NCBI GenBank assembly: GCA_036479435.1
Contig: JAZGFI010000103.1
Coordinates: forward strand, 33,955 to 97,954
Length of the DNA: 64,000 bases
Source: Planctomycetota bacterium
GTDB lineage: Bacteria > Planctomycetota > GCA-002687715 > DRQF01
Direction: 5' to 3'
In this document: positions 11,059 through 60,697 of the stretch, one piece after another
How positions within the stretch are numbered: position 1 is the stretch's first letter
How the letters are laid out: every line of letters begins with the position of its first letter
Translations under genes and position numbers: made by a program
Notes under the pieces: generated by a model
What the model saw: only the letters and a program-made list of their open reading frames with translations
Told to the model about the DNA's origin: nothing
Databases searched by the model: none

Positions 11059-13239
11059 CTAAGGACTTGGCTCGCTTTTCCATACTTGGGGTTTCAGGCC
11101 CTGTAGCCAGGATCTTAGGCATCCATGGCGGTGTGCATAATCGTTCGCCCCTACCGCCAGGGCCAAGGCCCGAGGATCACCGACAATGACCAAAAGGCGT
11201 TTCGCGCGCGTGACGGCGGTATAGAGAACGGGTCTTTTGAGCAGCAGGAAGTGCTGATTATAGACCGGCAAGATCACCGCTGGGAACTCTCCGCCCTGGG
11301 ATTTGTGCACCGTCATCGCCCAGGCGGGCGCGATGTCCGAAAGGCTCGATCGGCCGTATTCTTGGCGAGCGTTGCCGAAGCGCGCCATGAGTTGCCCCCG
11401 CGCCAGGTCAATCGACTCAACTCGCCCCAAGTCTCCATTGAACAACTCGCGGTCGTAGTCGTTTCGGCGCTGCATGATCCGGTCGCCTCGGGCAAACCTA
11501 AGATCCCCGTGTTCCAAGAATTCCGCATGAGGATCACGGGCCTGTTGCACGGAACGATTCAGTTCCAGAGTGCCGACGGGACCTTTGTGCATCGGGCTGA
11601 GAATTTGAACGTCACCAGGCCCAGATTGGTCGAGACGTCGAGGGACTTCTTCCAGCAAAAGTCGCGTGACAATCTCGGCGCCTCGCCTCGGGTCTTTCTC
11701 CTCGATGAACAACAAATCCGCGCCGTCGTCGGCAAGATCTGGTATTCGTCCGGCCAAGATCTCGTGCGCGACTCGAATGATGCGACTGCCCTGAGCTTGT
11801 CGAAACACCCGGGTGAGGCGGAGGACGGGGACGACTCCCGCGGCAATGACGTCTCTGAGGACCGTCCCCGGACCGACGGATGGAAGTTGTTCCGCGTCGC
11901 CCACCAACAACAGGCGTGCGCCCTCGGGAAGGGCCCTCAGCAGGTGTAAGAACAGTGGAAGATCTAGCATCGATGTTTCGTCGATGACGATGATGTCCGC
12001 AGCGAGCGGATAGTCCGTACCGTGAGCAAAACGACCGTGGCCACCGTCAAACTTCAACAGACGATGAATGGTGGTCGCCTCCAAGCCGGATACCTGTTCC
12101 AGTCTCTTGGCGGCGCGACCGGTGGGGCAGGCCAAGGCGATGCGGAGGCCGCGGTCGCGCCAGATGCGTACGAGACTGCGAAGGACCGTCGTCTTGCCGA
12201 CGCCAGGACCACCGGTCAACACGGCGACCTTAGATTGCAAGATTCCTCGAATGGCCTCTGATTGCTCGCTCGACAGTTCGGCCTGGATCGCCTTCGACGC
12301 TTGCGTTGGCAGCCTTGGGCCTAGGGGGTCGCTCGAATTGAGGTGGGTTGAGAGTCTTTGCGCCGCCTCGGTCTCGGCATCAAAAGCGAAGGCGTCATAG
12401 ACATTGTAGTCGCGTTCCGGAGAGTCTCGCGCGATGACGATTTTTCGCGTTGCGACCAGTTCTTTGAGCTGCTGGCGCAGCGGAGCTTGATCGACCTCGA
12501 GTAAGTCTGCCGCTCGCTCGAGCAAGACCGGTCCCGGCAGACAGATGTGACCTTGCACCAAAGCTTCGTCGAGAGCGTGGCTGAGGCCGGCATTGAGCCG
12601 CGAGGGGGCATCCGCGGCGGTGCCCTGAGCCCTGGCGACGCGATCTGCCAATCGAAATCCGACACCCGATACTTTCTCGGCGAGGAGGTAGGGATTGTGC
12701 TGCACCCGTCCCAGGCCGTCGTCGCCGAGGGCATCGGCGGCCCGCAAGGCCAAAGCGGGCCCCAGGCCGTGTCCCTGGAGAAAGATCAAAAGTTCGCGGC
12801 GTTCGCGCTCGCTACGCCAAGTGGTGGCGATGGTGTCGGCGCGCCTTTTTCCAATTCCCTCGACTTCGGTCAGCCGCACGGGTTCGTCGTCCAAAACTTC
12901 GAGGGTCTTGTCGCCGAAGGCTTTGACGAGTCGCCGCGCGAGCTCGGGTCCGATGCCCTCAACGCGAGGCCCCGCCAAGTACTTTTCAATACCGATGAGA
13001 GTTTGCGGGGTCAGGCGTAGGGCGCTTTGGGCTTTGAAACGGGAGCCAAACTTGGGATGCTCCTCGAAGATTCCGTGGAGCCGAAGCTCGTCGTTTTCAA
13101 ACAGATCTCCGGTAATGCCGACAACGGTAAGCTCGCCACCGCGGGCAGGCCGAAACGAAAACACGGAGAATCCCGTGTCTTCGTTGGCAAAGATGACGCG
13201 CTTGACGCGCCCTTCAATGAGTTGGAGATCATCGTTCAC
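11059..13239 (-). CDS. recD2: RecD2-like ATP-dependent DNA helicase (RecD/TraA superfamily 1)
   Basis: 726 aa. N-terminal RecD2-type region (VIFANEDTGFSVF), helix-hairpin-helix segment, Walker A LTGGPGVGKTT, Walker B/DEAD-like region, C-terminal SH3-like region. Typical length for RecD2. Confidence 0.85.
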   Translation of the reverse strand: MNDDLQLIEGRVKRVIFANEDTGFSVFSFRPARGGELTVVGITGDLFENDELRLHGIFEEHPKFGSRFKAQSALRLTPQTLIGIEKYLAGPRVEGIGPELARRLVKAFGDKTLEVLDDEPVRLTEVEGIGKRRADTIATTWRSERERRELLIFLQGHGLGPALALRAADALGDDGLGRVQHNPYLLAEKVSGVGFRLADRVARAQGTAADAPSRLNAGLSHALDEALVQGHICLPGPVLLERAADLLEVDQAPLRQQLKELVATRKIVIARDSPERDYNVYDAFAFDAETEAAQRLSTHLNSSDPLGPRLPTQASKAIQAELSSEQSEAIRGILQSKVAVLTGGPGVGKTTVLRSLVRIWRDRGLRIALACPTGRAAKRLEQVSGLEATTIHRLLKFDGGHGRFAHGTDYPLAADIIVIDETSMLDLPLFLHLLRALPEGARLLLVGDAEQLPSVGPGTVLRDVIAAGVVPVLRLTRVFRQAQGSRIIRVAHEILAGRIPDLADDGADLLFIEEKDPRRGAEIVTRLLLEEVPRRLDQSGPGDVQILSPMHKGPVGTLELNRSVQQARDPHAEFLEHGDLRFARGDRIMQRRNDYDRELFNGDLGRVESIDLARGQLMARFGNARQEYGRSSLSDIAPAWAMTVHKSQGGEFPAVILPVYNQHFLLLKRPVLYTAVTRAKRLLVIVGDPRALALAVGANDYAHRHGCLRSWLQGLKPQVWKSEPSP

Positions 13240-13259
13240 GGGCCCAGGATACTCGATCC

Positions 13260-13402
13260 GGTGCCAGGCACCACGCCGTCACTCTGTGGTGCCTGGCACG
13301 GAAAAGTGACGGCGGGGTGCCTGGCACGGAAAAGTGACGGCGGGGTGCCTGGCACCGCCTAGGGTGCCTGGCACCGCCTAGTCACTCTGGGGTGCCGGGC
13401 AT
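13260..13402. repeat. tandem array of palindromic GGTGCC(T/A)GGCACC units (28-bp unit x2, 19-bp unit x2, flanking degenerate copies)
   Basis: Seen directly: ggtgccaggcacc (13260-13272); ggtgcctggcacggaaaagtgacggcgg x2 (13288-13315 and 13316-13343); ggtgcctggcaccgcctag x2 (13344-13362 and 13363-13381); ggtgccgggcat (13391-13402). Lies in the divergent intergenic region between recD2 and the GT1 gene. Confidence 0.85.
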
Positions 13403-13424
13403 AGACAGGAGAGGGGAGCTTCCG

Positions 13425-14582
13425 TTGTCAGATTCGCTTCGAATTCTTCGGGTCATCACGCGTCTTAATGTCGGCGGGCCTTCGCGTCATGTGGTGCAGC
13501 TCATGCAGGGGCTGGAGTCGAATCGTTTCGAGCAGACTCTGGTTGCGGGTGAACTCAGCGAAGGCGAGGCGGAACTGCCTGACGCTAGGGCTTTGAAGCC
13601 GAGGTATTGCCGGGAACTTGCGCGCCGCGTGAGCCCTCAAAAAGACCGCCGCGCCTACCTTGAACTGAGGGGCATCATTGCCGAGCTGAAGCCGCACATC
13701 GTGCACACCCATCAAGCCAAGGCCGGATTGTTGGCGCGTTTGGCGGCGAAGCACGAGGCGGGGCCTAAGCTGGTCCATACCTACCACGGTCATACTTTTC
13801 AGGGTTACTGGAATCCGATTTTCGGGCGCCTCGTGCGAGGCCTTGAACGGCGGCTCGGCATGATGTCAGATGCCCTGATCGCGCAGTCAGAGTCTCAACG
13901 CGAAGAGCTTCGTCAACACTTGGGGGCTCGAGTCGCGGATCGGATTCGGATCATCAAGCCCGGAGTGAACTTCGACTTGTTCGAGGGAACAAGAGTTGGA
14001 ACACGGTCCTCAGAGACGATCTCAATTGGATTCGTCGGACGGCTTGCCACCGTCAAGAATGTGCCGGACTTCTTGGCAACGCTAAAGCAGCTCCAAGACC
14101 ATCATTCACTTTCCTTCAAAGCGAAGATCATCGGCGACGGTGCGGCATCGCTTCGAGAGCGACTTGAAGAACAAGCGCGAGCGCTGGGGGTGGCGGAAAA
14201 GATCGAATGGAAGGGTAATTGCAAGGACATGGCAAAAACCTATCGGGAGCTCGACGTCGTGGTCATGACCAGCCGCAATGAGGGGACCCCATTGGCCGCG
14301 ATTGAGGCGCTTTATTGCGGTTGCCGTTTCCTGTCCTACGACGTTGGGGGGATTCGTGACACGGTGGGAGATTTAAGCGGCGTGACATTGGTGCCGCCGC
14401 GAGACTTCAAACAACTGGCGGAAGCTCTGGTCAAGGTCGTTGCAAAGGGAGGACCCTGCGTTGATCTCGAATTGGAAAATCTGCAGCGGGAACTGAGTCA
14501 GCGATTTGGAAGCGCACGCCTAACGGCCGAGATTGCCGAGCTCTACGAAGACATCACCCGCGCGTCGCCGACGCGCTCTTAG
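13425..14582 (+). CDS. glycosyltransferase family 1 (GT-B, GT4-like)
   Basis: Begins LRILRVITRLNVGGP, typical of GT4 enzymes. C-terminal EGTPLAAIEALYCG(C) E-x7-E region. Start chosen at in-frame TTG 13425, 5 nt after GGAGAGGGGAG. ATG 13392 is possible but lacks an RBS. Confidence 0.75.
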   Translation: MSDSLRILRVITRLNVGGPSRHVVQLMQGLESNRFEQTLVAGELSEGEAELPDARALKPRYCRELARRVSPQKDRRAYLELRGIIAELKPHIVHTHQAKAGLLARLAAKHEAGPKLVHTYHGHTFQGYWNPIFGRLVRGLERRLGMMSDALIAQSESQREELRQHLGARVADRIRIIKPGVNFDLFEGTRVGTRSSETISIGFVGRLATVKNVPDFLATLKQLQDHHSLSFKAKIIGDGAASLRERLEEQARALGVAEKIEWKGNCKDMAKTYRELDVVVMTSRNEGTPLAAIEALYCGCRFLSYDVGGIRDTVGDLSGVTLVPPRDFKQLAEALVKVVAKGGPCVDLELENLQRELSQRFGSARLTAEIAELYEDITRASPTRS

Positions 14583-16485: not shown

Positions 16486-18627
16486 ATGAAGCTCCTCGGA
16501 GGCCGGCGACTCGCCATGATCGTGGCTTGTATGGTTTTGACGACCATGACGGCTTGGTCTGCCTTCAGTCCCGATCCCTCCCCACAAGAAAATGGGAGTT
16601 TTCGCGCGAGCGTGCAAGACGAGAAAGTCGCGATTCGCAACGCGCCCTTAGACGTCAAGATTGAGCACGTCGACTTGCGAGGCGACACGATCCCCGGTTT
16701 TGACTGGAACGGCGCGAACCTGGACATCAAGGGCATTGATGACCTCGACGGTAAAGCTATCGAGAGCGCAGCTCTGCGACCCGAGCCAAAAGACGGACGC
16801 CGCACGACAATCATCGAAATCGACGACGGAGCGCTCCTACTTCGAAACGTCGTCTTGGTTGATGACGTTTCGGTGACTTACCGAGCAAAGAAGTACGACG
16901 TGATTCCGGACACCGTGCCGGGGATCGTTGCGATCTTGCCGGCGCTCATTGCGATCTTGTTGGCGATCATGTTTCGCCAAGTGTTGCCCGCCTTGTTTGC
17001 TGGCGTTTGGGTCGGCGGTATCTTCATTGCCGGAGGCCCCTGGGCTGGTTTCCGCTACGTCGTTACTGAGCTAATTCCGACCACGCTGTCCGATTCGAGT
17101 CGGCTCAGCATTCTCGTGTTTTCTTGTCTACTCGGAAGCGTCGTCGCCTTGATCGCACGCATGGGGGGCACGCGAGGACTCGTCGACTCCATGTCGAAAG
17201 TTGGCGATAGCCGGCGAGGGGCTCAACTGACGACTTGGTTTTCCGGGATGTTGATCTTCTTCGACGACTACGCCAACGCGCTTCTCGTCGGCAATACGAT
17301 GCGACCTATTACCGACCGTTTTCGGGTGAGCCGCGAAAAGCTGGCTTTCCTCGTCGACAGTACGTCAGCGCCGGTTGCCTGCGTGGTGGTTATCTCGACC
17401 TGGATCGCGGCCGAAATCGGCTACATCCAAGGCAAGCTCGAATTGGAAGCGGTGCAGATTGCGACGGGGTGGACCCCGGACAAGGCCTACCAGATTTTCT
17501 TGGAGACCATCCCCTACAACTTCTACCCGATCTACTGCATCGCCTTTTGCTTTTTCATTTGCCTCTTCCAACGCGACTTCGGTCCGATGCTAAAAGCGGA
17601 GCGCCGCGCCTTTCACGACGGCAAAGTCCTCGCCGATGGGGCGGTGCCGCTCAGCTCCCGAGAGATGGATCAGCTCGAACCCGCCGACCCCAACCGCCAG
17701 TACTGGTGGAACGCGATGATCCCCATTGGGACGGTCATTATCTCGGTCTTGGGGTTCCTCTATATCACCGGGGCCGAAGTTATTGAGGAGAGCCACCAAT
17801 CCGCTCTCCAAGAGATTCGCGCGCTCGAATTTACCCGAAACTCTGCGGACACCGCGGTGTCCGAGAAGTTAAGACTCGTGTCCCAAATTGCCGTGGAGGA
17901 AAACCGGGCCGAAGCCTTGGCATCGCCGCCGCTTCGAGACATTTTTGGTGCCGCAAAGAGTTACCACGCCTTGCTCTTGGCCGCCTTCCTTGGCGTCATC
18001 GCCGCTTTGATCTGTGGGATGGGGCAAGGCCTGTTGCGCCTCGGCGAGTCATTCGAGGTCGTGACGGCGGGCATCAAGGCGATGATCCCCGCCGTCCTGG
18101 TGTTGACCCTGGCATGGGCGCTGCAAGACGTCTGTGAACGCTCCAATACCTCACAATGGCTCATCCACCACATCACGCTGAAGTCCACGATCTTGCCGAT
18201 GTTGATCTTCCTCTTGGCCGCGGTCATCGGATTTTCGACCGGGACGAGCTGGGGAACGATGGGGATCTTGGTGCCTTTGACCATGGATTATGTCGTCAGC
18301 CTGAGCGTGGAGGAGTCCTTCATGGTGGCCGAGACCCAAGTGCTCTTGGTCAGCTCGGTGGGGGCGGTGCTCGCCGGGGCCGTTTTCGGCGATCATTGTT
18401 CGCCGATCTCAGATACGACGATCATGTCCTCGATGTCCTGTGGCGCCGATCACGTCGATCACGTGAAAACCCAGCTGCCCTACGCCTTTTCGGTGGCCTG
18501 CATTGCCATCTTAGTGGGCTATCTACCCGCAGGTTTTGGAATCTCGCCCTGGATCCTACTTCCTCTCGGAATCCTGCTTTGTGCGGTGGTTATCCGGGTC
18601 TTGGGGCGCCGAGCGACGGACAGCTAA
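16486..18627 (+). CDS. NhaC-family-like membrane transporter with ~150-aa N-terminal extracytoplasmic domain
   Basis: ATG 16486 (9 nt after AAGGGA). Signal/TM region, then a soluble domain, then ~11 TM helices. LVGNTMRPITDRFRVSREKLAFLVDSTSAPVA resembles the NhaC Na+/H+ antiporter family. Confidence 0.5.
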   Translation: MKLLGGRRLAMIVACMVLTTMTAWSAFSPDPSPQENGSFRASVQDEKVAIRNAPLDVKIEHVDLRGDTIPGFDWNGANLDIKGIDDLDGKAIESAALRPEPKDGRRTTIIEIDDGALLLRNVVLVDDVSVTYRAKKYDVIPDTVPGIVAILPALIAILLAIMFRQVLPALFAGVWVGGIFIAGGPWAGFRYVVTELIPTTLSDSSRLSILVFSCLLGSVVALIARMGGTRGLVDSMSKVGDSRRGAQLTTWFSGMLIFFDDYANALLVGNTMRPITDRFRVSREKLAFLVDSTSAPVACVVVISTWIAAEIGYIQGKLELEAVQIATGWTPDKAYQIFLETIPYNFYPIYCIAFCFFICLFQRDFGPMLKAERRAFHDGKVLADGAVPLSSREMDQLEPADPNRQYWWNAMIPIGTVIISVLGFLYITGAEVIEESHQSALQEIRALEFTRNSADTAVSEKLRLVSQIAVEENRAEALASPPLRDIFGAAKSYHALLLAAFLGVIAALICGMGQGLLRLGESFEVVTAGIKAMIPAVLVLTLAWALQDVCERSNTSQWLIHHITLKSTILPMLIFLLAAVIGFSTGTSWGTMGILVPLTMDYVVSLSVEESFMVAETQVLLVSSVGAVLAGAVFGDHCSPISDTTIMSSMSCGADHVDHVKTQLPYAFSVACIAILVGYLPAGFGISPWILLPLGILLCAVVIRVLGRRATDS

Positions 18628-55658: not shown

Positions 55659-57608
55659 ATGAAGAAACTAGTATACCTTTCCTCCTTCATGGGGACTTTT
55701 CTGCTAGTGGCGAGCCTCGCGTTCGCTCACGGCGGTAATTACACCGGACCTGGCGGTACGGGATCCGGCGGCGGATTCTCACCTTCAGGTGGTGGTACTC
55801 CCGGCCCGGGTCCTGGACCCGGCGGTGGTGGTACGACCGGTGGCGGTTCTAACGGCGGCGGCGCGACCGGCCCTGGCGGCGGTCTTCCCGGTGGTCCGAC
55901 CGGACCTGGCGGCGGTGGCGGCGGCGGAAATGCTGGCGGACCTGGCGGCGGACTCGGTGGTGGCGGCGGTTCGACGCCCGGCGCTCGCAAGGCCGCCAGT
56001 GACGCGAACGTCACTTGGGCCGCTTGGTGGTTCTTCAACGATGATCGCTTCTTGAACCTCAAGGCGAAAGTTCGCGCCGACGAAGCGCAAACCGAAAACG
56101 CCGACTTGTTCCTGGGTGAAGACACCTCCGATGCCGGTAGCAACCGAATGCCCGCGAAGAAAATTCGCGAAGGTGTGTTGCCGGTTCTGCGCCTCGCGTT
56201 GAAGGACTCCTTCTACGACACGCGCGCTGCGGCCGTGATTGCCCTCGGCAAATGTGGCATGGGCGATGACCTCGCTGAAATCAAGTCTGTCCTCAACGAC
56301 CGTGACAAACGTGTCCGCGAATCGGCAGCGTTGGCGATGGGGATCCTTGGCGACAAGGAAGCCATCCCGACCCTCATCGAGATCATGAACAACACCAAGT
56401 CTGCGCGGAAATTGCTTCGCAAGGGCGGTGAAATTCTTCCCCGTACTCGTTCGTTCGCGGCTATCGCCATTGGTTTGATCGGTCGTCGTACCGACATCTC
56501 CGATACCGAAGGAACGCGCGCCCTCATCAAGCTCATGAACGACAAGAGAGCCACCAAGGCGCAAGTCGACCTCGCGGTCGGACCGATCGCCGCTCTCGGA
56601 ATCATGAAGTCGAAGGAAGCCATTCCCGAGCTCGTCAAGTACTTGAAGAACTCCAACAACCGCACCGTGGCCCGCTCGTTTGCAGCGACCTCGCTCGGCA
56701 AGATTGGTGATCGTTCGGCTCTTGAGCCGCTGTTGAAGTGCTTGAAGGACAAGCAGAACGCGATCGTTCAGTCCTCGACCATGGCTTTGGGTCAAATCCT
56801 TGAGCCCTCTGACACCAAAGAAGTGAAGCGCGTGAAGAAGCTCGTCTCGACGAGTGCTGACCTTTCGGTCAAGAACTTCGCGATCATGTCACTCGCTCAA
56901 ATCGGTGGCGACGAAAACCGTCAGTTCATCACGAGACTCGTGACCAAGGGTAAGGCTTTGCAAAAGCCCTTCGCTTCGCTCGCGGTCGGCGTGTTCTACT
57001 ACAACAACCCCGATTTCCTTCACCGGGAATCTGCGGCCAAGATCATCCACAAGGAGTTCAAGAGCACCAAGAACCCCTCGGATCTCGGCGCGCATGCGAT
57101 CGCTTTGGGTCTCATGAAGTACGACGCCGCTGGCGCCGACATTCTGAAGATCCTCAACAAGGGTGGCCAGGCTTCGCTTCGTCAGCACCTTGCGATCTCA
57201 CTCGGCCTCATGGACTACCGCGATTCCATCAAGGACATCCGGGAGATCGTGAAGGAAAAGGGTGATGTTGACTTGCGACGGAACTCCGCCATTGCTCTCG
57301 GTCTCCTCGGCGACCGTGGTGCCATGAAGTTCCTCAGCGAAGAAATCGCGAAGTCCTCGAACACGCAGCCGGTTCTCGGCGCCGTGACTCGTGGCCTCGG
57401 ATTCATCGGTGATGCGAGTGCGGTTCCGTTGTTGACGAAGATGGTCAAGGATTCGAAGAAGTTCAAGGACAACACGCGCGCCTTCTCGGCCGTGGCCTTG
57501 GGCTTGCTGGGCGACAAAGATCCCCTGCCCTTCACCGCCTCCATCTCTGAGAACAACAACTACATCCAGCGGACCGATGCGATCCGCGAAGTCCTGACGA
57601 TTCTCTAA
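55659..57608 (+). CDS. secreted HEAT-repeat (PBS-lyase-type) protein with Gly/Pro-rich N-terminal region, paralogue 1
   Basis: Signal peptide MKKLVYLSSFMGTFLLVASLAFA with the predicted cleavage site directly before HGGNY. An ~85-aa Gly/Pro tract, a conserved WAAWWFFNDDRFLNLKAK block, then >12 repeats of DxxVRxxAAxALGxxGD. Confidence 0.7.
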   Translation: MKKLVYLSSFMGTFLLVASLAFAHGGNYTGPGGTGSGGGFSPSGGGTPGPGPGPGGGGTTGGGSNGGGATGPGGGLPGGPTGPGGGGGGGNAGGPGGGLGGGGGSTPGARKAASDANVTWAAWWFFNDDRFLNLKAKVRADEAQTENADLFLGEDTSDAGSNRMPAKKIREGVLPVLRLALKDSFYDTRAAAVIALGKCGMGDDLAEIKSVLNDRDKRVRESAALAMGILGDKEAIPTLIEIMNNTKSARKLLRKGGEILPRTRSFAAIAIGLIGRRTDISDTEGTRALIKLMNDKRATKAQVDLAVGPIAALGIMKSKEAIPELVKYLKNSNNRTVARSFAATSLGKIGDRSALEPLLKCLKDKQNAIVQSSTMALGQILEPSDTKEVKRVKKLVSTSADLSVKNFAIMSLAQIGGDENRQFITRLVTKGKALQKPFASLAVGVFYYNNPDFLHRESAAKIIHKEFKSTKNPSDLGAHAIALGLMKYDAAGADILKILNKGGQASLRQHLAISLGLMDYRDSIKDIREIVKEKGDVDLRRNSAIALGLLGDRGAMKFLSEEIAKSSNTQPVLGAVTRGLGFIGDASAVPLLTKMVKDSKKFKDNTRAFSAVALGLLGDKDPLPFTASISENNNYIQRTDAIREVLTIL

Positions 57609-57668: not shown

Positions 57669-58148
57669 CTCGCCCCAAGCCGCGGAGACGCTCAGCCTCG
57701 CGCCAATTGTGAACGCTGCGCTCGCCGTTGGCGTATCTTACGACACCGTTCCCGATTTCGATCTTGGTAAGCAAACCGCCGAGCGTCGCCTCAACGTGTT
57801 CAAAGAAACCTGTGATCCCTCAAGACGCGATGCGATCGGCGAACTCCTGAAGATTCTCTGATTCGCATCCTATCGGCGAGGGCTCTTCGCGCTGGCCTTA
57901 GTGCTAAGGGAAGGAAGCGTTACGGCGGAGTCACGCCGTTACCAACAAATCCCATTGCCGATGAACGGGGCTTTGCGCAGCTGGACGTTCAACGGCCTCC
58001 AAAGGCCTCTGCTTGCCGATAGGGCGCTCCGTGCGCCTTCTGGCACCCTCTTTGCATTTGCTTGGTAGACACGCTCGATCCCCCAGCCGGATTGCTCCGC
58101 CGATCGTGACCTTCTGCCATGTGGTCCCAGTGACCCCGGAGAAACGCC

Positions 58149-60083
58149 ATGAAACATCTCATCTATCTAACTTCGTTCTTGGGAGCCTTGCTCCTAGCCA
58201 CCAGCCTGGTCTTTGCGCACGGCGGGAATTACACCGGTCCCGGCGGCACCGGCAGCAGCGGTGGCTTTTCACCATCGGGCGGCGGTACGCCCGGACCTGG
58301 GCCGGCTCCGGGAGGAGGCTCCACTCCTGGCGGCGGAGGAAACGGTGGTGGAGCCACTCCCCGCGGCAGCGGGTTGCCTGGAGGCCCCCCGGGTCCTGGA
58401 GGCGGCCTACCCGGTGGCGGGGGCTTTGGCGGTGGCCCTGGAAACGCCACGGGCGGCGGCAAGAAAAAGCCCTCTGACTCCAACACCACCTGGGCCGCTT
58501 GGTGGTTCTTCAACGACGATCGTTTCTTGAACCTCAAGGCCAAGATCCGGGCCGAGCGCGCCACGACCGATATCGACGATGCCTTCATGGGATCGGACAC
58601 GTCTGATTTGGGTCACAACAAACTCTCCGCTCGCAAGATTCGCGACGGTGTTCTTCCCGTGCTGCGCTTAGCGCTCAAAGACGGCCACTACGATACTCGT
58701 GCAGCCGCCGTCATCGCCTTAGGTAAGGCCGGAATGCCCGACGATCTGGCGGAGATTAAGACGCTCCTCGGCGACCGCGACAAGCGCGTGCGCGAGTCAT
58801 CGGCCTTGGCACTCGGCATCTTGGGCAACAAAAAAGCCCTACCCGAACTCATCGCCATCATGAACAACACAGCGTGGGCCCGAAAAGAACTGCGTCAAGG
58901 AGGCGAAGTTCTGCCGCGCACGCGCGCCTTCGCCGCCATGGCCTTGGGACTGATCGGTGGTCGTACGGACATTTCTGACACCGCCGCTTTCACCGCCCTC
59001 GTTCAACTCATGAACGACAAGCACACCACAAAGGCCCAGATCGATCTCACTGTGGGGCCCATCGTTGCGCTCGGGATCATGAACGACAAAGCCGCCGTAC
59101 CTGAGCTCGTACGCTACCTTGAAAATCGTGAAAACCGCACCACCGCCCGCGCCTACGCTGCCATTTCGCTCGGGAAACTCGGCGACCGTTCCGCGACGGC
59201 TTCCTTGCTCCGCGCTCTCAAGGCCAAGCACGGCGCCATCGTCGAATCCGCCGCGATCGCTTTGGGACAGATCCTTGAACCTAGCGACAAAAAGGCGGTC
59301 AAGCGCCTGCGTCGACTGGTTGCAAGCTCTCCCATTCAGTCGGTGCGCAACTTCGCCATCATGTCCTTGGGTCAAATCGGCGGTGAAGAGAACCGTCAAT
59401 TCCTCACCACTACCGTCACTCGCGGCAAAGCCCTCCAACGTCCTTTCGCCTCGATGGCACTCGGCGTCTTTTACTACAACCACCCGCACTACGATCATCG
59501 CAAGGCAACCGGCATTCTGCTTCATGGCGAATTCAAAGCCACCAAGAACCCCTCTGAACTCGGCGCACATGCGATTGCCCTGGGGCTGATGCAGTTTGAC
59601 ACCGCTGGTGCCGACATTCTGAAGACCCTAAACAAGGGCGGCCAGGCCTCGATGCGCCAACACCTAGCGATCTCTTTGGGGCTCATGAGCTACCAAGACG
59701 CCATCCCGGACATCCGTACCCTCGTGGAGGAAAAGGGCGATGTTGACTTGCGACGCAATGCTGCGATCGCCCTCGGTCTGCTCGGCGACCGCGGTGCGAT
59801 GAGTTTCCTAAGTGAGCAAATCGCCGACTCTGCGAATTCGCAGGCGGTCCTCGGGGCCGTGACGCGAGGCCTCGGCTTCATCGGCGATGCCAGTGCTGTC
59901 CCGCTTCTGACTGAAATGGTTCGCGACGCCAAAAAGTACAAGGACAACACACGCGCCTTTTCGGCCGTTGCCTTGGGGCTCTTGGGCGACAAAGACCCGC
60001 TGCCTTTCACGACAGCCATCGCCGAGAACAACAACTACATCCAGCGCACGGACGCCATCCGCGAGCTCCTCACTATCCTTTAA
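58149..60083 (+). CDS. secreted HEAT-repeat (PBS-lyase-type) protein with Gly/Pro-rich N-terminal region, paralogue 2
   Basis: Collinear with paralogue 1 over the whole length (same signal peptide, HGGNYTGPGGTG start, WAAWWFFNDDRFLNLKAK block, identical C-terminal IQRTDAIRExLTIL). ~85 bp of upstream DNA is also conserved. Confidence 0.7.
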   Translation: MKHLIYLTSFLGALLLATSLVFAHGGNYTGPGGTGSSGGFSPSGGGTPGPGPAPGGGSTPGGGGNGGGATPRGSGLPGGPPGPGGGLPGGGGFGGGPGNATGGGKKKPSDSNTTWAAWWFFNDDRFLNLKAKIRAERATTDIDDAFMGSDTSDLGHNKLSARKIRDGVLPVLRLALKDGHYDTRAAAVIALGKAGMPDDLAEIKTLLGDRDKRVRESSALALGILGNKKALPELIAIMNNTAWARKELRQGGEVLPRTRAFAAMALGLIGGRTDISDTAAFTALVQLMNDKHTTKAQIDLTVGPIVALGIMNDKAAVPELVRYLENRENRTTARAYAAISLGKLGDRSATASLLRALKAKHGAIVESAAIALGQILEPSDKKAVKRLRRLVASSPIQSVRNFAIMSLGQIGGEENRQFLTTTVTRGKALQRPFASMALGVFYYNHPHYDHRKATGILLHGEFKATKNPSELGAHAIALGLMQFDTAGADILKTLNKGGQASMRQHLAISLGLMSYQDAIPDIRTLVEEKGDVDLRRNAAIALGLLGDRGAMSFLSEQIADSANSQAVLGAVTRGLGFIGDASAVPLLTEMVRDAKKYKDNTRAFSAVALGLLGDKDPLPFTTAIAENNNYIQRTDAIRELLTIL

Positions 60084-60163
60084 ACCCAAGCGGTGCCTAG
60101 CACCGCGACCTCATCAATCGGTGTTTAGCACCGCGCGTCACTTGCCTGTACCTGGCACTCAAT

Positions 60164-60187
60164 AGTGACGGCGTGGTGCCTGGCACC
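60164..60187. repeat. 24-nt element AGTGACGGCGTGGTGCCTGGCACC, identical (inverted) to 13260-13283; part of a cluster of GGTGCCTGGCACC-like palindromes at 60098-60187
   Basis: The reverse complement of 13260-13283 (ggtgccaggcaccacgccgtcact) equals 60164-60187 exactly. Degenerate copies: cggtgcctagcaccgcg (60098-60114), cggtgtttagcaccgcg (60119-60135), cctggcact (60150-60158). Confidence 0.8.
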
Positions 60188-60193
60188 CAATAA

Positions 60194-60697
60194 TCAGATT
60201 CGTCTTAGCCAAAAGGCCAAGGAGATGGCGATGAGGAGACCGGCGGTGAGGGCGATCCAGGAACGCTTTTGAAGACCGGCTGCAGAGTCGAGGTATTGCT
60301 CGGCATTTTTCGTTTGGGTGCGGTAGTGCTGGATAACGTCTTCGCGATCATCGAGAGAGGCGGCGCGCCGAAAGGCGTCGACGGCCGCGCGGTGATGGTT
60401 TTGCGAACCGAGAATGGCACCCTTCAATCCCCAGTTAAGGGATTGTTTGGCGTCGAGTTCAATGGCGCGTTCAGCACTTTTGAGAGCGGAATCGAGGTCG
60501 CCGAGATCGCGAAAAGCGGACGACAAAAAATGGTGACCCCAGGGATCGCGCGGAAATGTTTGCGTGTGAGTTCTGAGATTTTCGATGGGCCGAGAAGAAT
60601 TGGCGAAAATTTCCTGGGCGCGTAGGTAGTCCGAAGGCGAGGCGTCGTTTTGTACGCCAGCACTGAACAGAGCACAGACTAGGGCAAGGGAAAACAT
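60194..60697 (-). CDS. small secreted TPR-like repeat protein
   Basis: Signal peptide MFSLALVCALFSAGVQ. Helical-repeat composition with an ALKSAERAIELDAKQSLNWGLKGAIL TPR-like motif. Confidence 0.45.
   Translation of the reverse strand: MFSLALVCALFSAGVQNDASPSDYLRAQEIFANSSRPIENLRTHTQTFPRDPWGHHFLSSAFRDLGDLDSALKSAERAIELDAKQSLNWGLKGAILGSQNHHRAAVDAFRRAASLDDREDVIQHYRTQTKNAEQYLDSAAGLQKRSWIALTAGLLIAISLAFWLRRI

Follow-up and report, generated by a model that had tools for sequence, protein, structure and literature searches.

Repeat families associated with tyrosine transposases of the Y1 type have been described before. Di Nocera et al. 2013 (PMC3733652) defined the TIRtrons, together with their TIRYT transposases and the 'TIR repeat' families: the terminal inverted repeats of TIRtrons often carry the motif GGGGWSAS and constitute moderately abundant repeat families in some species, and some TIR families are self-complementary and closely spaced, occurring as dimers or clusters (PMC3733652). 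The same study described REPs tagged with CGTC, which have 8-9-bp stems starting with A-T pairs and no associated transposase (PMC3733652). On the enzyme side, the TnpA-Y1 subclass 2.1 of Quentin et al. 2018 (PMC6006769) is equivalent to RAYT group 1 of Bertels et al. 2017 and largely coincides with the TIRYT of Di Nocera, and near subclass 2.1 genes Quentin et al. report no REP-like sequences (PMC6006769).

Here we analyse an array of short palindromes in a 64-kb stretch of DNA (the window) from a metagenome-assembled planctomycete genome; the array is located between recD2 and a glycosyltransferase gene of the GT4 family. In our judgement the array is likely to be an inserted, BIME/REPIN-like cluster of a dispersed, hairpin-forming repeat associated with Y1 transposases, and not an operator dedicated to recD2 and GT4.

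Anatomy of the array between recD2 and the GT4 gene

Six copies of the palindrome GGTGCCWGGCACC occupy positions 13260-13403 in the recD2/GT4 spacer (Table 1), a frequency far above chance. With up to two mismatches allowed, the window contains seven matches where 1.23 are expected, a count reached by none of 100 shuffles; all seven fall within two intergenic clusters, none of them in coding sequence, and the excess over chance at up to three mismatches is made up of the same two clusters. P2 and P3, which start at 13288 and 13316, match GGTGCCWGGCACC at 12 of 13 positions and end in G, while P4 and P5, at 13344 and 13363, match at all 13. The palindromes are separated by spacers of 15 nt (one of 6 nt) that represent one sequence, read as ..GCCGTCACTnnnn.. 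in one orientation and as its reverse complement ..nnnnAGTGACGGC.. in the other, with the signature ..CGTCACT.. / ..AGTGACG..; the orientation-B spacer GAAAAGTGACGGCGG is accordingly the reverse complement of the A-type spacer. The spacer order is A, B, B, truncated, A, and the complete layout reads P-A-P-B-P-B-P-(6 nt)-P-A'-P. Tandem Repeats Finder reports a 28-bp unit present 2.4 times (13288-13355) and a 19-bp unit present 2.1 times (13343-13381), both at 100%, and to judge from their exactness these duplications indicate an apparently recent local amplification. The locus is identical in three samples, with neither transposition nor strain polymorphism seen among these.

Table 1 Features of the array, its flanking genes and the second cluster (positions in the window).
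Feature	Position	Strand	Basis or remark
recD2, flanking gene outside the element	11059..13239	-	GTG start at 13239 matches the orthologue start
Hairpin 1, predicted, long single-strand (P1-A-P2-B-P3)	13257..13330	.	Fold; equals the ~70-nt unit common to both loci
Palindrome P1, GGTGCCAGGCACC, centre A	13260..13272	.	13/13 match to GGTGCCWGGCACC; 5' arm of hairpin 1
Spacer, orientation A, ACGCCGTCACTCTGT	13273..13287	+	Read from sequence
Two exact 28-bp units: palindrome GGTGCCTGGCACG (P2, P3) and orientation-B spacer GAAAAGTGACGGCGG	13288..13343	.	28-bp period, 100%
Hairpin 2, predicted (B-P4-P5-A')	13333..13386	.	Fold
Two exact 19-bp units: GGTGCCTGGCACC (P4, P5) and GCCTAG	13344..13381	.	19-bp period, 100%
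Spacer, orientation A', GCCTAGTCACTCTGG	13376..13390	+	Read from sequence
Sixth palindrome, degenerate, GGTGCCGGGCATA	13391..13403	.	10/13
GT4-family glycosyltransferase, flanking gene	13425..14582	+	Probable start TTG 13425, after GGGGAG
Second cluster, partly decayed, of the array's own family	60092..60187	.	Palindromes at 60092, 60120, 60147 and 60175; GTCACT / AGTGAC spacers

The length of the intergenic region depends on where the GT4 gene begins, for which there are three candidates. GTG 13392 is the start of the longest reading frame and falls inside the degenerate sixth palindrome; ATG 13503, the start in a public gene call, would cut into the Glyco_transf_4 domain. TTG 13425 is the probable start, favoured because of the orthologue N-terminus (MSDSLRIL vs MGRKLRIL) and the GGGGAG ribosome-binding site. 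Nearby genes encode PilZ, an M28 peptidase and an unannotated protein, and the genes neighbouring the array include no adjacent regulator gene and carry no cas domains.

Folded as single-stranded DNA, the array region reaches -60.1 kcal/mol against -33.1 +/- 2.8 kcal/mol for shuffled sequences (z = -9.6). Neither a sigma-70-like promoter nor an intrinsic-terminator-like site was found in 12900-13800, and the arrays of the window have no T-run. The whole window gave no Rfam match at gathering thresholds, and the only models returned by a permissive Rfam search of 13150-13500 were those of hairpin-shaped microRNAs, whose scores stayed far under the gathering level. The 28-nt period and the strong predicted fold are what a CRISPR-like array or the gene of a structured small RNA might offer, a reading that we find hardly credible in view of 'spacers' that are one sequence in two orientations instead of being unique, of the lack of nearby cas genes, and of the lack of both an Rfam family at threshold and a promoter-like or terminator-like site. 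Sigma-54 promoter elements with TGGCAC at -24, hinted at by the CTGGCAC in each T-centred copy, have a next to negligible probability: every array site departs from TGGCAC-N5-TTGC by two or more mismatches, GTGA stands in place of the -12 GC, and the motif is abundant in Actinomycetota, which to our knowledge generally lack sigma-54.

Much of this anatomy had been anticipated in a first-pass annotation of the same DNA, which described six near-perfect palindrome copies (five match at 12-13 of 13 positions and the sixth at 10 of 13), exact 28-bp followed by exact 19-bp direct repeats, and TGGCAC-N5-AGTGAC within the units, all of which we recover. It was equally right to set CRISPR aside and to call the sigma-54 resemblance superficial. 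Its intergenic length of 185 bp agrees with a GT4 start at TTG 13425 and with neither of the other two, and its picture of contiguous, spacer-free units has to give way to palindromes parted by spacers.

Two further tandem repeats are present in the window: a 21-bp unit repeated 2.6 times at 16916-16970 (TGCCGGCGATCATTGCGATCT) and a tract rich in GGC/GGCGG with units of 9-15 bp at 55834-55970.

A second cluster in the window and the orthologous spacer in relatives

A second cluster, absent from the first-pass annotation, lies where two convergent genes end, between the stop codon of a HEAT-repeat gene (58149-60083, +) and that of a TPR gene (60194-60697, -). Its palindromes follow one another with a period of 28/27/28 bp, and the segment 60120-60188 repeats the P-A-P-B-P plan of 13257-13330, with ~75% identity when the two are aligned and a single-strand fold of z = -5.5. 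The unit common to both loci is ~70 nt long and consists of palindrome, spacer, palindrome, reverse-complement spacer and palindrome. Because the second cluster shows the period, the spacers and the hairpin plan of the array in a convergent spacer, the repeat is a dispersed family of this genome rather than a peculiarity of the recD2/GT4 promoters. When the window was extended by ~10 kb on its right side (L205) and by ~1 kb on its left side (L206), no further motif copy appeared; two clusters are thus known from ~75 kb of this genome, both intergenic, from which a high copy number here is an extrapolation. The HEAT-repeat gene is itself preceded, ~94 nt upstream of its ATG at 58149, by a perfect sigma-54 consensus TGGCAC-N5-TTGC (TGGCACCCTCTTTGC, 58041-58055, +), the sole zero-mismatch site of this kind in the window.

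The closest matches to the RecD2 of the window in the protein collection share just 54-58% identity with it. Two of these relatives are encoded on long contigs that share its gene order, and relatives with RecD2 identities of 54-56% keep the synteny Sua5 / RpiB / CarboxypepD_reg protein / Na-H antiporter / PilZ / GT4 <-> recD2 / ABC transporters. The start codons of GT4 and recD2 lie 44 bp apart in the relatives' loci L123 and L124 and 166 bp apart in L122, and at up to two mismatches the motif is absent from all three over 8-22 kb each. Subtracting the array from the spacer of the window leaves 20 + 21 = 41 bp. Next to recD2, the window (..GAGTATCCTGGGCCC-GTG) and L123 (..GCGTATCCTACGGGCG-ATG) resemble each other, 'TATCCT' being common to both. 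Since the relatives keep the gene pair without the motif, and since the window spacer minus the array amounts to 41 bp, the comparison shows the array to be an insertion into a former spacer of ~42 bp.

These results bear on the two functional readings that the first-pass annotation had left side by side. In the first, the divergent promoters of recD2 and GT4 would be regulated together by a dimeric transcription factor that binds the palindromes, and a perfect 13-bp palindrome at fixed phasing in a divergent promoter region is indeed what such an operator would look like. We nevertheless consider it very unlikely, given that the motif is missing from the orthologous spacer of relatives keeping the gene pair (the three loci above), a test that the first-pass annotation had itself set, that the array's unit also occurs between two convergent 3' ends (60092-60187), that the core is found at unrelated loci in about ten phyla, and that there is no adjacent regulator gene. 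The second reading, a REP-like repeat, is strengthened by the convergent cluster, by the motif-free spacer of the relatives and by the occurrence of the core in many genomes, where it flanks Y1 genes (see below).

Under the favoured reading, that of an inserted repeat cluster, one ~70-nt unit would have entered the ancestral GT4/recD2 spacer of about 42 bp and would then have grown locally as 28-bp and 19-bp stretches were duplicated exactly in tandem, replication slippage from one palindrome to another being the most likely route. At recD2/GT4 the array would be passenger DNA with no dedicated regulatory role, and it would contribute a very stable structure to any transcript that crosses the spacer. 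The two genes would accordingly not be co-controlled by a palindrome operator; they would have been pushed 144 bp apart by a selfish repeat.

The core in other genomes and the Y1 transposases linked to it

To describe the distribution of the core, one genome per GTDB species was scanned for two core copies 14-18 nt apart. The GGTGCCWGGCACC core, paired at 26-30 bp or arrayed, was found in at least 119 stretches, a raw tally that gives no measure of excess over chance, and going by record titles these come from about ten phyla: Actinomycetota (Thermoleophilia, Gaiellales, Acidimicrobiales, Humibacillus), Gamma- and Alphaproteobacteria, Bacillota (many Bacillaceae isolates, and Clostridia), Planctomycetota, Acidobacteriota, Myxococcota, Cyanobacteriota, Bdellovibrionota, Armatimonadota and Patescibacteria. 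Cultured isolates are among the carriers (Metabacillus arenae, Alkalihalobacterium, Novipirellula rosea). Among the matches listed, copies recur with periods of 13, 15 and 26-30 bp, and only the 13-mer is conserved across 360 distinct copies, the flanks being specific to each genome. Inverted doublets, P(A)-spacer-P(T), are more common than any other form; their spacer is itself palindromic, so that each doublet makes one long hairpin in the manner of REPINs. Among the matches listed, A-then-T, a strand-symmetric order, is seen 64 times and T-then-A 21 times, an excess not expected from a constraint on stability alone. Of the clusters listed, 36% lie deep inside long stop-free frames, whereas random placements do so in 74% of cases; where DNA is GC-rich, this measure is crude. 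In L019, from another Planctomycetota genome, the P-s-P-s'-P layout recurs with the 28-bp period, its spacers being unrelated to those of the window. A scan of viral contigs for the paired motif gave no match, and hence no evidence for a phage vehicle; a full-text search of the literature searchable here for the 11-mer and the 13-mer returned only eukaryotic primers and similar sequences, and no bacterial repeat.

Several of these genomes display the repeat in forms of their own. A gammaproteobacterial metagenome-assembled genome (MAG MFD09779.bin.3.249, L024) holds 19 copies of the 11-mer in 8 kb, a density comparable to that of classical REP-rich genomes, and most of the clusters shown there are bracketed by a genome-specific flank, AGAG...CTCT. 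In the MAG 'bacterium BQF170218_bin_230' (L022, 341-688) the doublet forms part of a 110-bp unit of which three copies follow one another head to tail, making a composite tandem repeat on a larger scale. In several Bacillaceae, the doublet takes the form GGTGCCAGGCACC-TTTAG-nnnn-CTAAA-GGTGCCTGGCACC, with an A-run before and a T-run after it (L051, 4561-4600, and L096, 4275-4318, both Alkalihalobacterium; likewise L040, L077, L083, L093 and L102), and a terminator scan of two of these loci (L051 and L096) scored it as intrinsic-terminator-like on either strand.

The core flanks an IS200-like Y1 (RAYT/TIRYT-type) transposase gene in eight loci (L008, L070, L058, L106, L044, L053, L138 and L187), and in six of the eight (L008, L070, L058, L106, L138 and L187) it does so on both sides. 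An all-against-all clustering of the open reading frames of the 119 listed loci yielded one family directly adjoining the arrays, the Y1 transposase, and no other protein family that was recurrently array-adjacent; the larger clusters (apparently ABC-type ATPases, short-chain dehydrogenases, GGDEF proteins and sensor kinases, with one or two members inspected each) were scattered at varying distances. The array-adjoining genes come from Thermoleophilia (L008), Gaiellales (L070), an unclassified source (L058), the isolate Metabacillus arenae (L106) and Allosphingosinicella (L044), and that of Novipirellula rosea (L053) was found by tblastn. The first five match Pfam Y1_Tnp (PF01797), L053 having been outside that scan, and for all six enzymes the best NCBIfam match is REP_Tyr_transpos, at 39-76 bits, below the 80-bit cut-off. 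The six of the eight loci that have a named source represent four phylum-level groups (Actinomycetota, Bacillota, Pseudomonadota and Planctomycetota).

An independent set of 80 metagenome loci was picked by the Y1 transposase protein alone. The 11-mer is present in just two of them (L138 and L187), where it lies on both sides of the gene within terminal inverted repeats of ~20 nt; in L187 the repeat GTCCCCGTGCCTGGCACCGA is placed ~80 nt upstream and 56 nt downstream of the Y1 gene. The inverted repeats reach beyond the core in several of the eight loci, and in two genomes the copies at the gene and those dispersed elsewhere have a genome-specific spacer or layout in common: AAATTnnnAATTT doublets in Metabacillus arenae and contiguous T,A,A triplets in Gaiellales BP_430.

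In alignment, the enzymes show the motifs NH[YVL]H, FQ/WQ/WE and Y[IV]xLNP, and the L053 enzyme looks 2.3-like, with an insertion after the HuH strand. A rough neighbour-joining tree groups five of the eight core-linked enzymes and places L106, L058 and L053 apart, indicating that the core only partly tracks one clade. The closest relatives of the M. arenae enzyme (L106) have no palindromic flanks of the core type, and a sequence search of the PDB with this enzyme gave no match at E <= 0.01. When the six repeat-linked Y1 transposases were compared with the window by tblastn, no match was obtained, and no Y1-transposase gene was found in the window and ~11 kb more of this genome (~75 kb in total). 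The physical linkage between repeat and enzyme thus holds in other genomes, and not in the ~75 kb read of this one.

A host-maintained structural element that needs no transposase, such as the site of a nucleoid or topology factor, a terminator or an mRNA stabiliser, would make the proximity of Y1 genes secondary. In its favour, the Alkalihalobacterium doublets meet the intrinsic-terminator consensus on both strands, the core-linked enzymes are not monophyletic, and E. coli REPs are known as binding sites of gyrase and IHF with effects on mRNA 3' ends (background in PMC6006769). The arrays of the window, however, lack a T-run or terminator-like site, and one of the two clusters occupies a 5' divergent region; moreover, eight Y1 genes flanked by the core, six of them on both sides and several with inverted repeats beyond it, are not predicted by a pure host-site model. 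We therefore regard this explanation as improbable, although a host function could possibly coexist with the selfish reading. DNA-uptake sequences and contiguous palindromes of the parS/KorB type were provisionally set aside in view of the linkage to transposases and of the many phyla in which the core occurs.

Likeness to REP and TIR-repeat systems

How the array relates to the described families can now be set out. It resembles the E. coli REP/BIME system with TnpA-REP (RAYT subclass 2.2) and the Pseudomonas REPIN-RAYT system in being built of short extragenic palindromes whose inverted doublets form long hairpins, in clusters that alternate in unit orientation, with copies often at gene 3' ends, and in the Y1 HUH enzyme gene that is flanked by the repeats (here in the loci of other genomes). 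It departs from canonical REPs in several respects. No 5' GT[AG]G tetranucleotide stands at the foot of the stem in the 360 distinct copies among the matches listed; the core is a perfect 13-bp palindrome, and a canonical REP is an imperfect stem-loop of 20-40 nt; the enzymes linked to the core, at 39-76 bits, score under the 80 of REP_Tyr_transpos; and the core spans about ten phyla, whereas canonical REP families are mostly lineage-restricted. A canonical GTAG-REP was rejected on the ground that the tetranucleotide tag is absent. The CGTC-tagged REPs (Di Nocera et al. 2013) share with the window head-to-head dimers and clusters, and also the tag, in that the window spacers contain CGTCAC; here, however, CGTC is placed 11 nt off the palindrome and not at the stem foot, and it is specific to this genome, not being seen in the units of other genomes.

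Likeness to the TIRYT systems is greater. The core-linked enzymes of other genomes carry motifs of the subclass 2.1 type, NH[YVL]H, FQ/WQ and Y[IV]xLNP (compare HuH NH[VYF]H, FQ/W[EQ] and Y[IV]xLNP in Table 1 of PMC6006769), the genes of L187 and L138 are bracketed by ~20-nt inverted repeats containing the core, with matching dispersed copies in M. arenae and Gaiellales BP_430, and the core repeats are also dispersed as singles, dimers and clusters. Unlike TIR repeats, the core (GGTGCCWGG) does not fit GGGGWSAS, GGGGTCAG being seen in some other protein-picked loci, and an identical core recurs over about ten phyla. We file the array as being of the REP/TIR-repeat kind, closest to the repeats associated with TIRYT.

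By analogy with REP/RAYT and with TIR repeats and TIRYT, the copies were probably spread in trans by an IS200-like HUH tyrosine (Y1) transposase whose gene would lie at another place in the genome. Its substrate would be the hairpin of single-stranded DNA, in the manner of the IS200/IS605 enzymes and of the E. coli TnpA-REP.

What is unusual is that an identical 13-bp core over about ten phyla is tied to an enzyme subclass which one survey found without REP-like partners. A bolder proposal, which we put forward tentatively and rate as somewhat unlikely, is that RAYT-like enzymes of subclass 2.1 / group 1 ('TIRYT', the largest RAYT group, reported without REP/REPIN partners) recognise GGTGCCWGGCACC as the core of one repeat system, which they mobilise and which has passed between about ten phyla, the array of the window being a member of the first REPIN-like family for that group. 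In such a single system there could be two ways of recognising the 13-bp palindrome, as a hairpin through the HUH domain or as a duplex through a C-terminal helix-turn-helix. The core offers a concrete, searchable DNA partner for the poorly understood group 1 RAYT / TIRYT enzymes, and its identity in distant phyla raises the question of horizontal movement versus constancy through a conserved protein-DNA interface.

A different, conserved terminal inverted repeat surrounds many RAYT-like genes of unrelated metagenomes (L131, L144, L146, L161, L173, L180 and L185), with GGGGTCAGGTCTTG upstream and its complement downstream. This GGGGTCAGGTCTTG inverted repeat of the protein-picked loci fits the GGGGWSAS motif of the 'TIRtrons', and L131 carries a palindromic variant of it, GGTCAAGTCTT/AAGACTTGACC.
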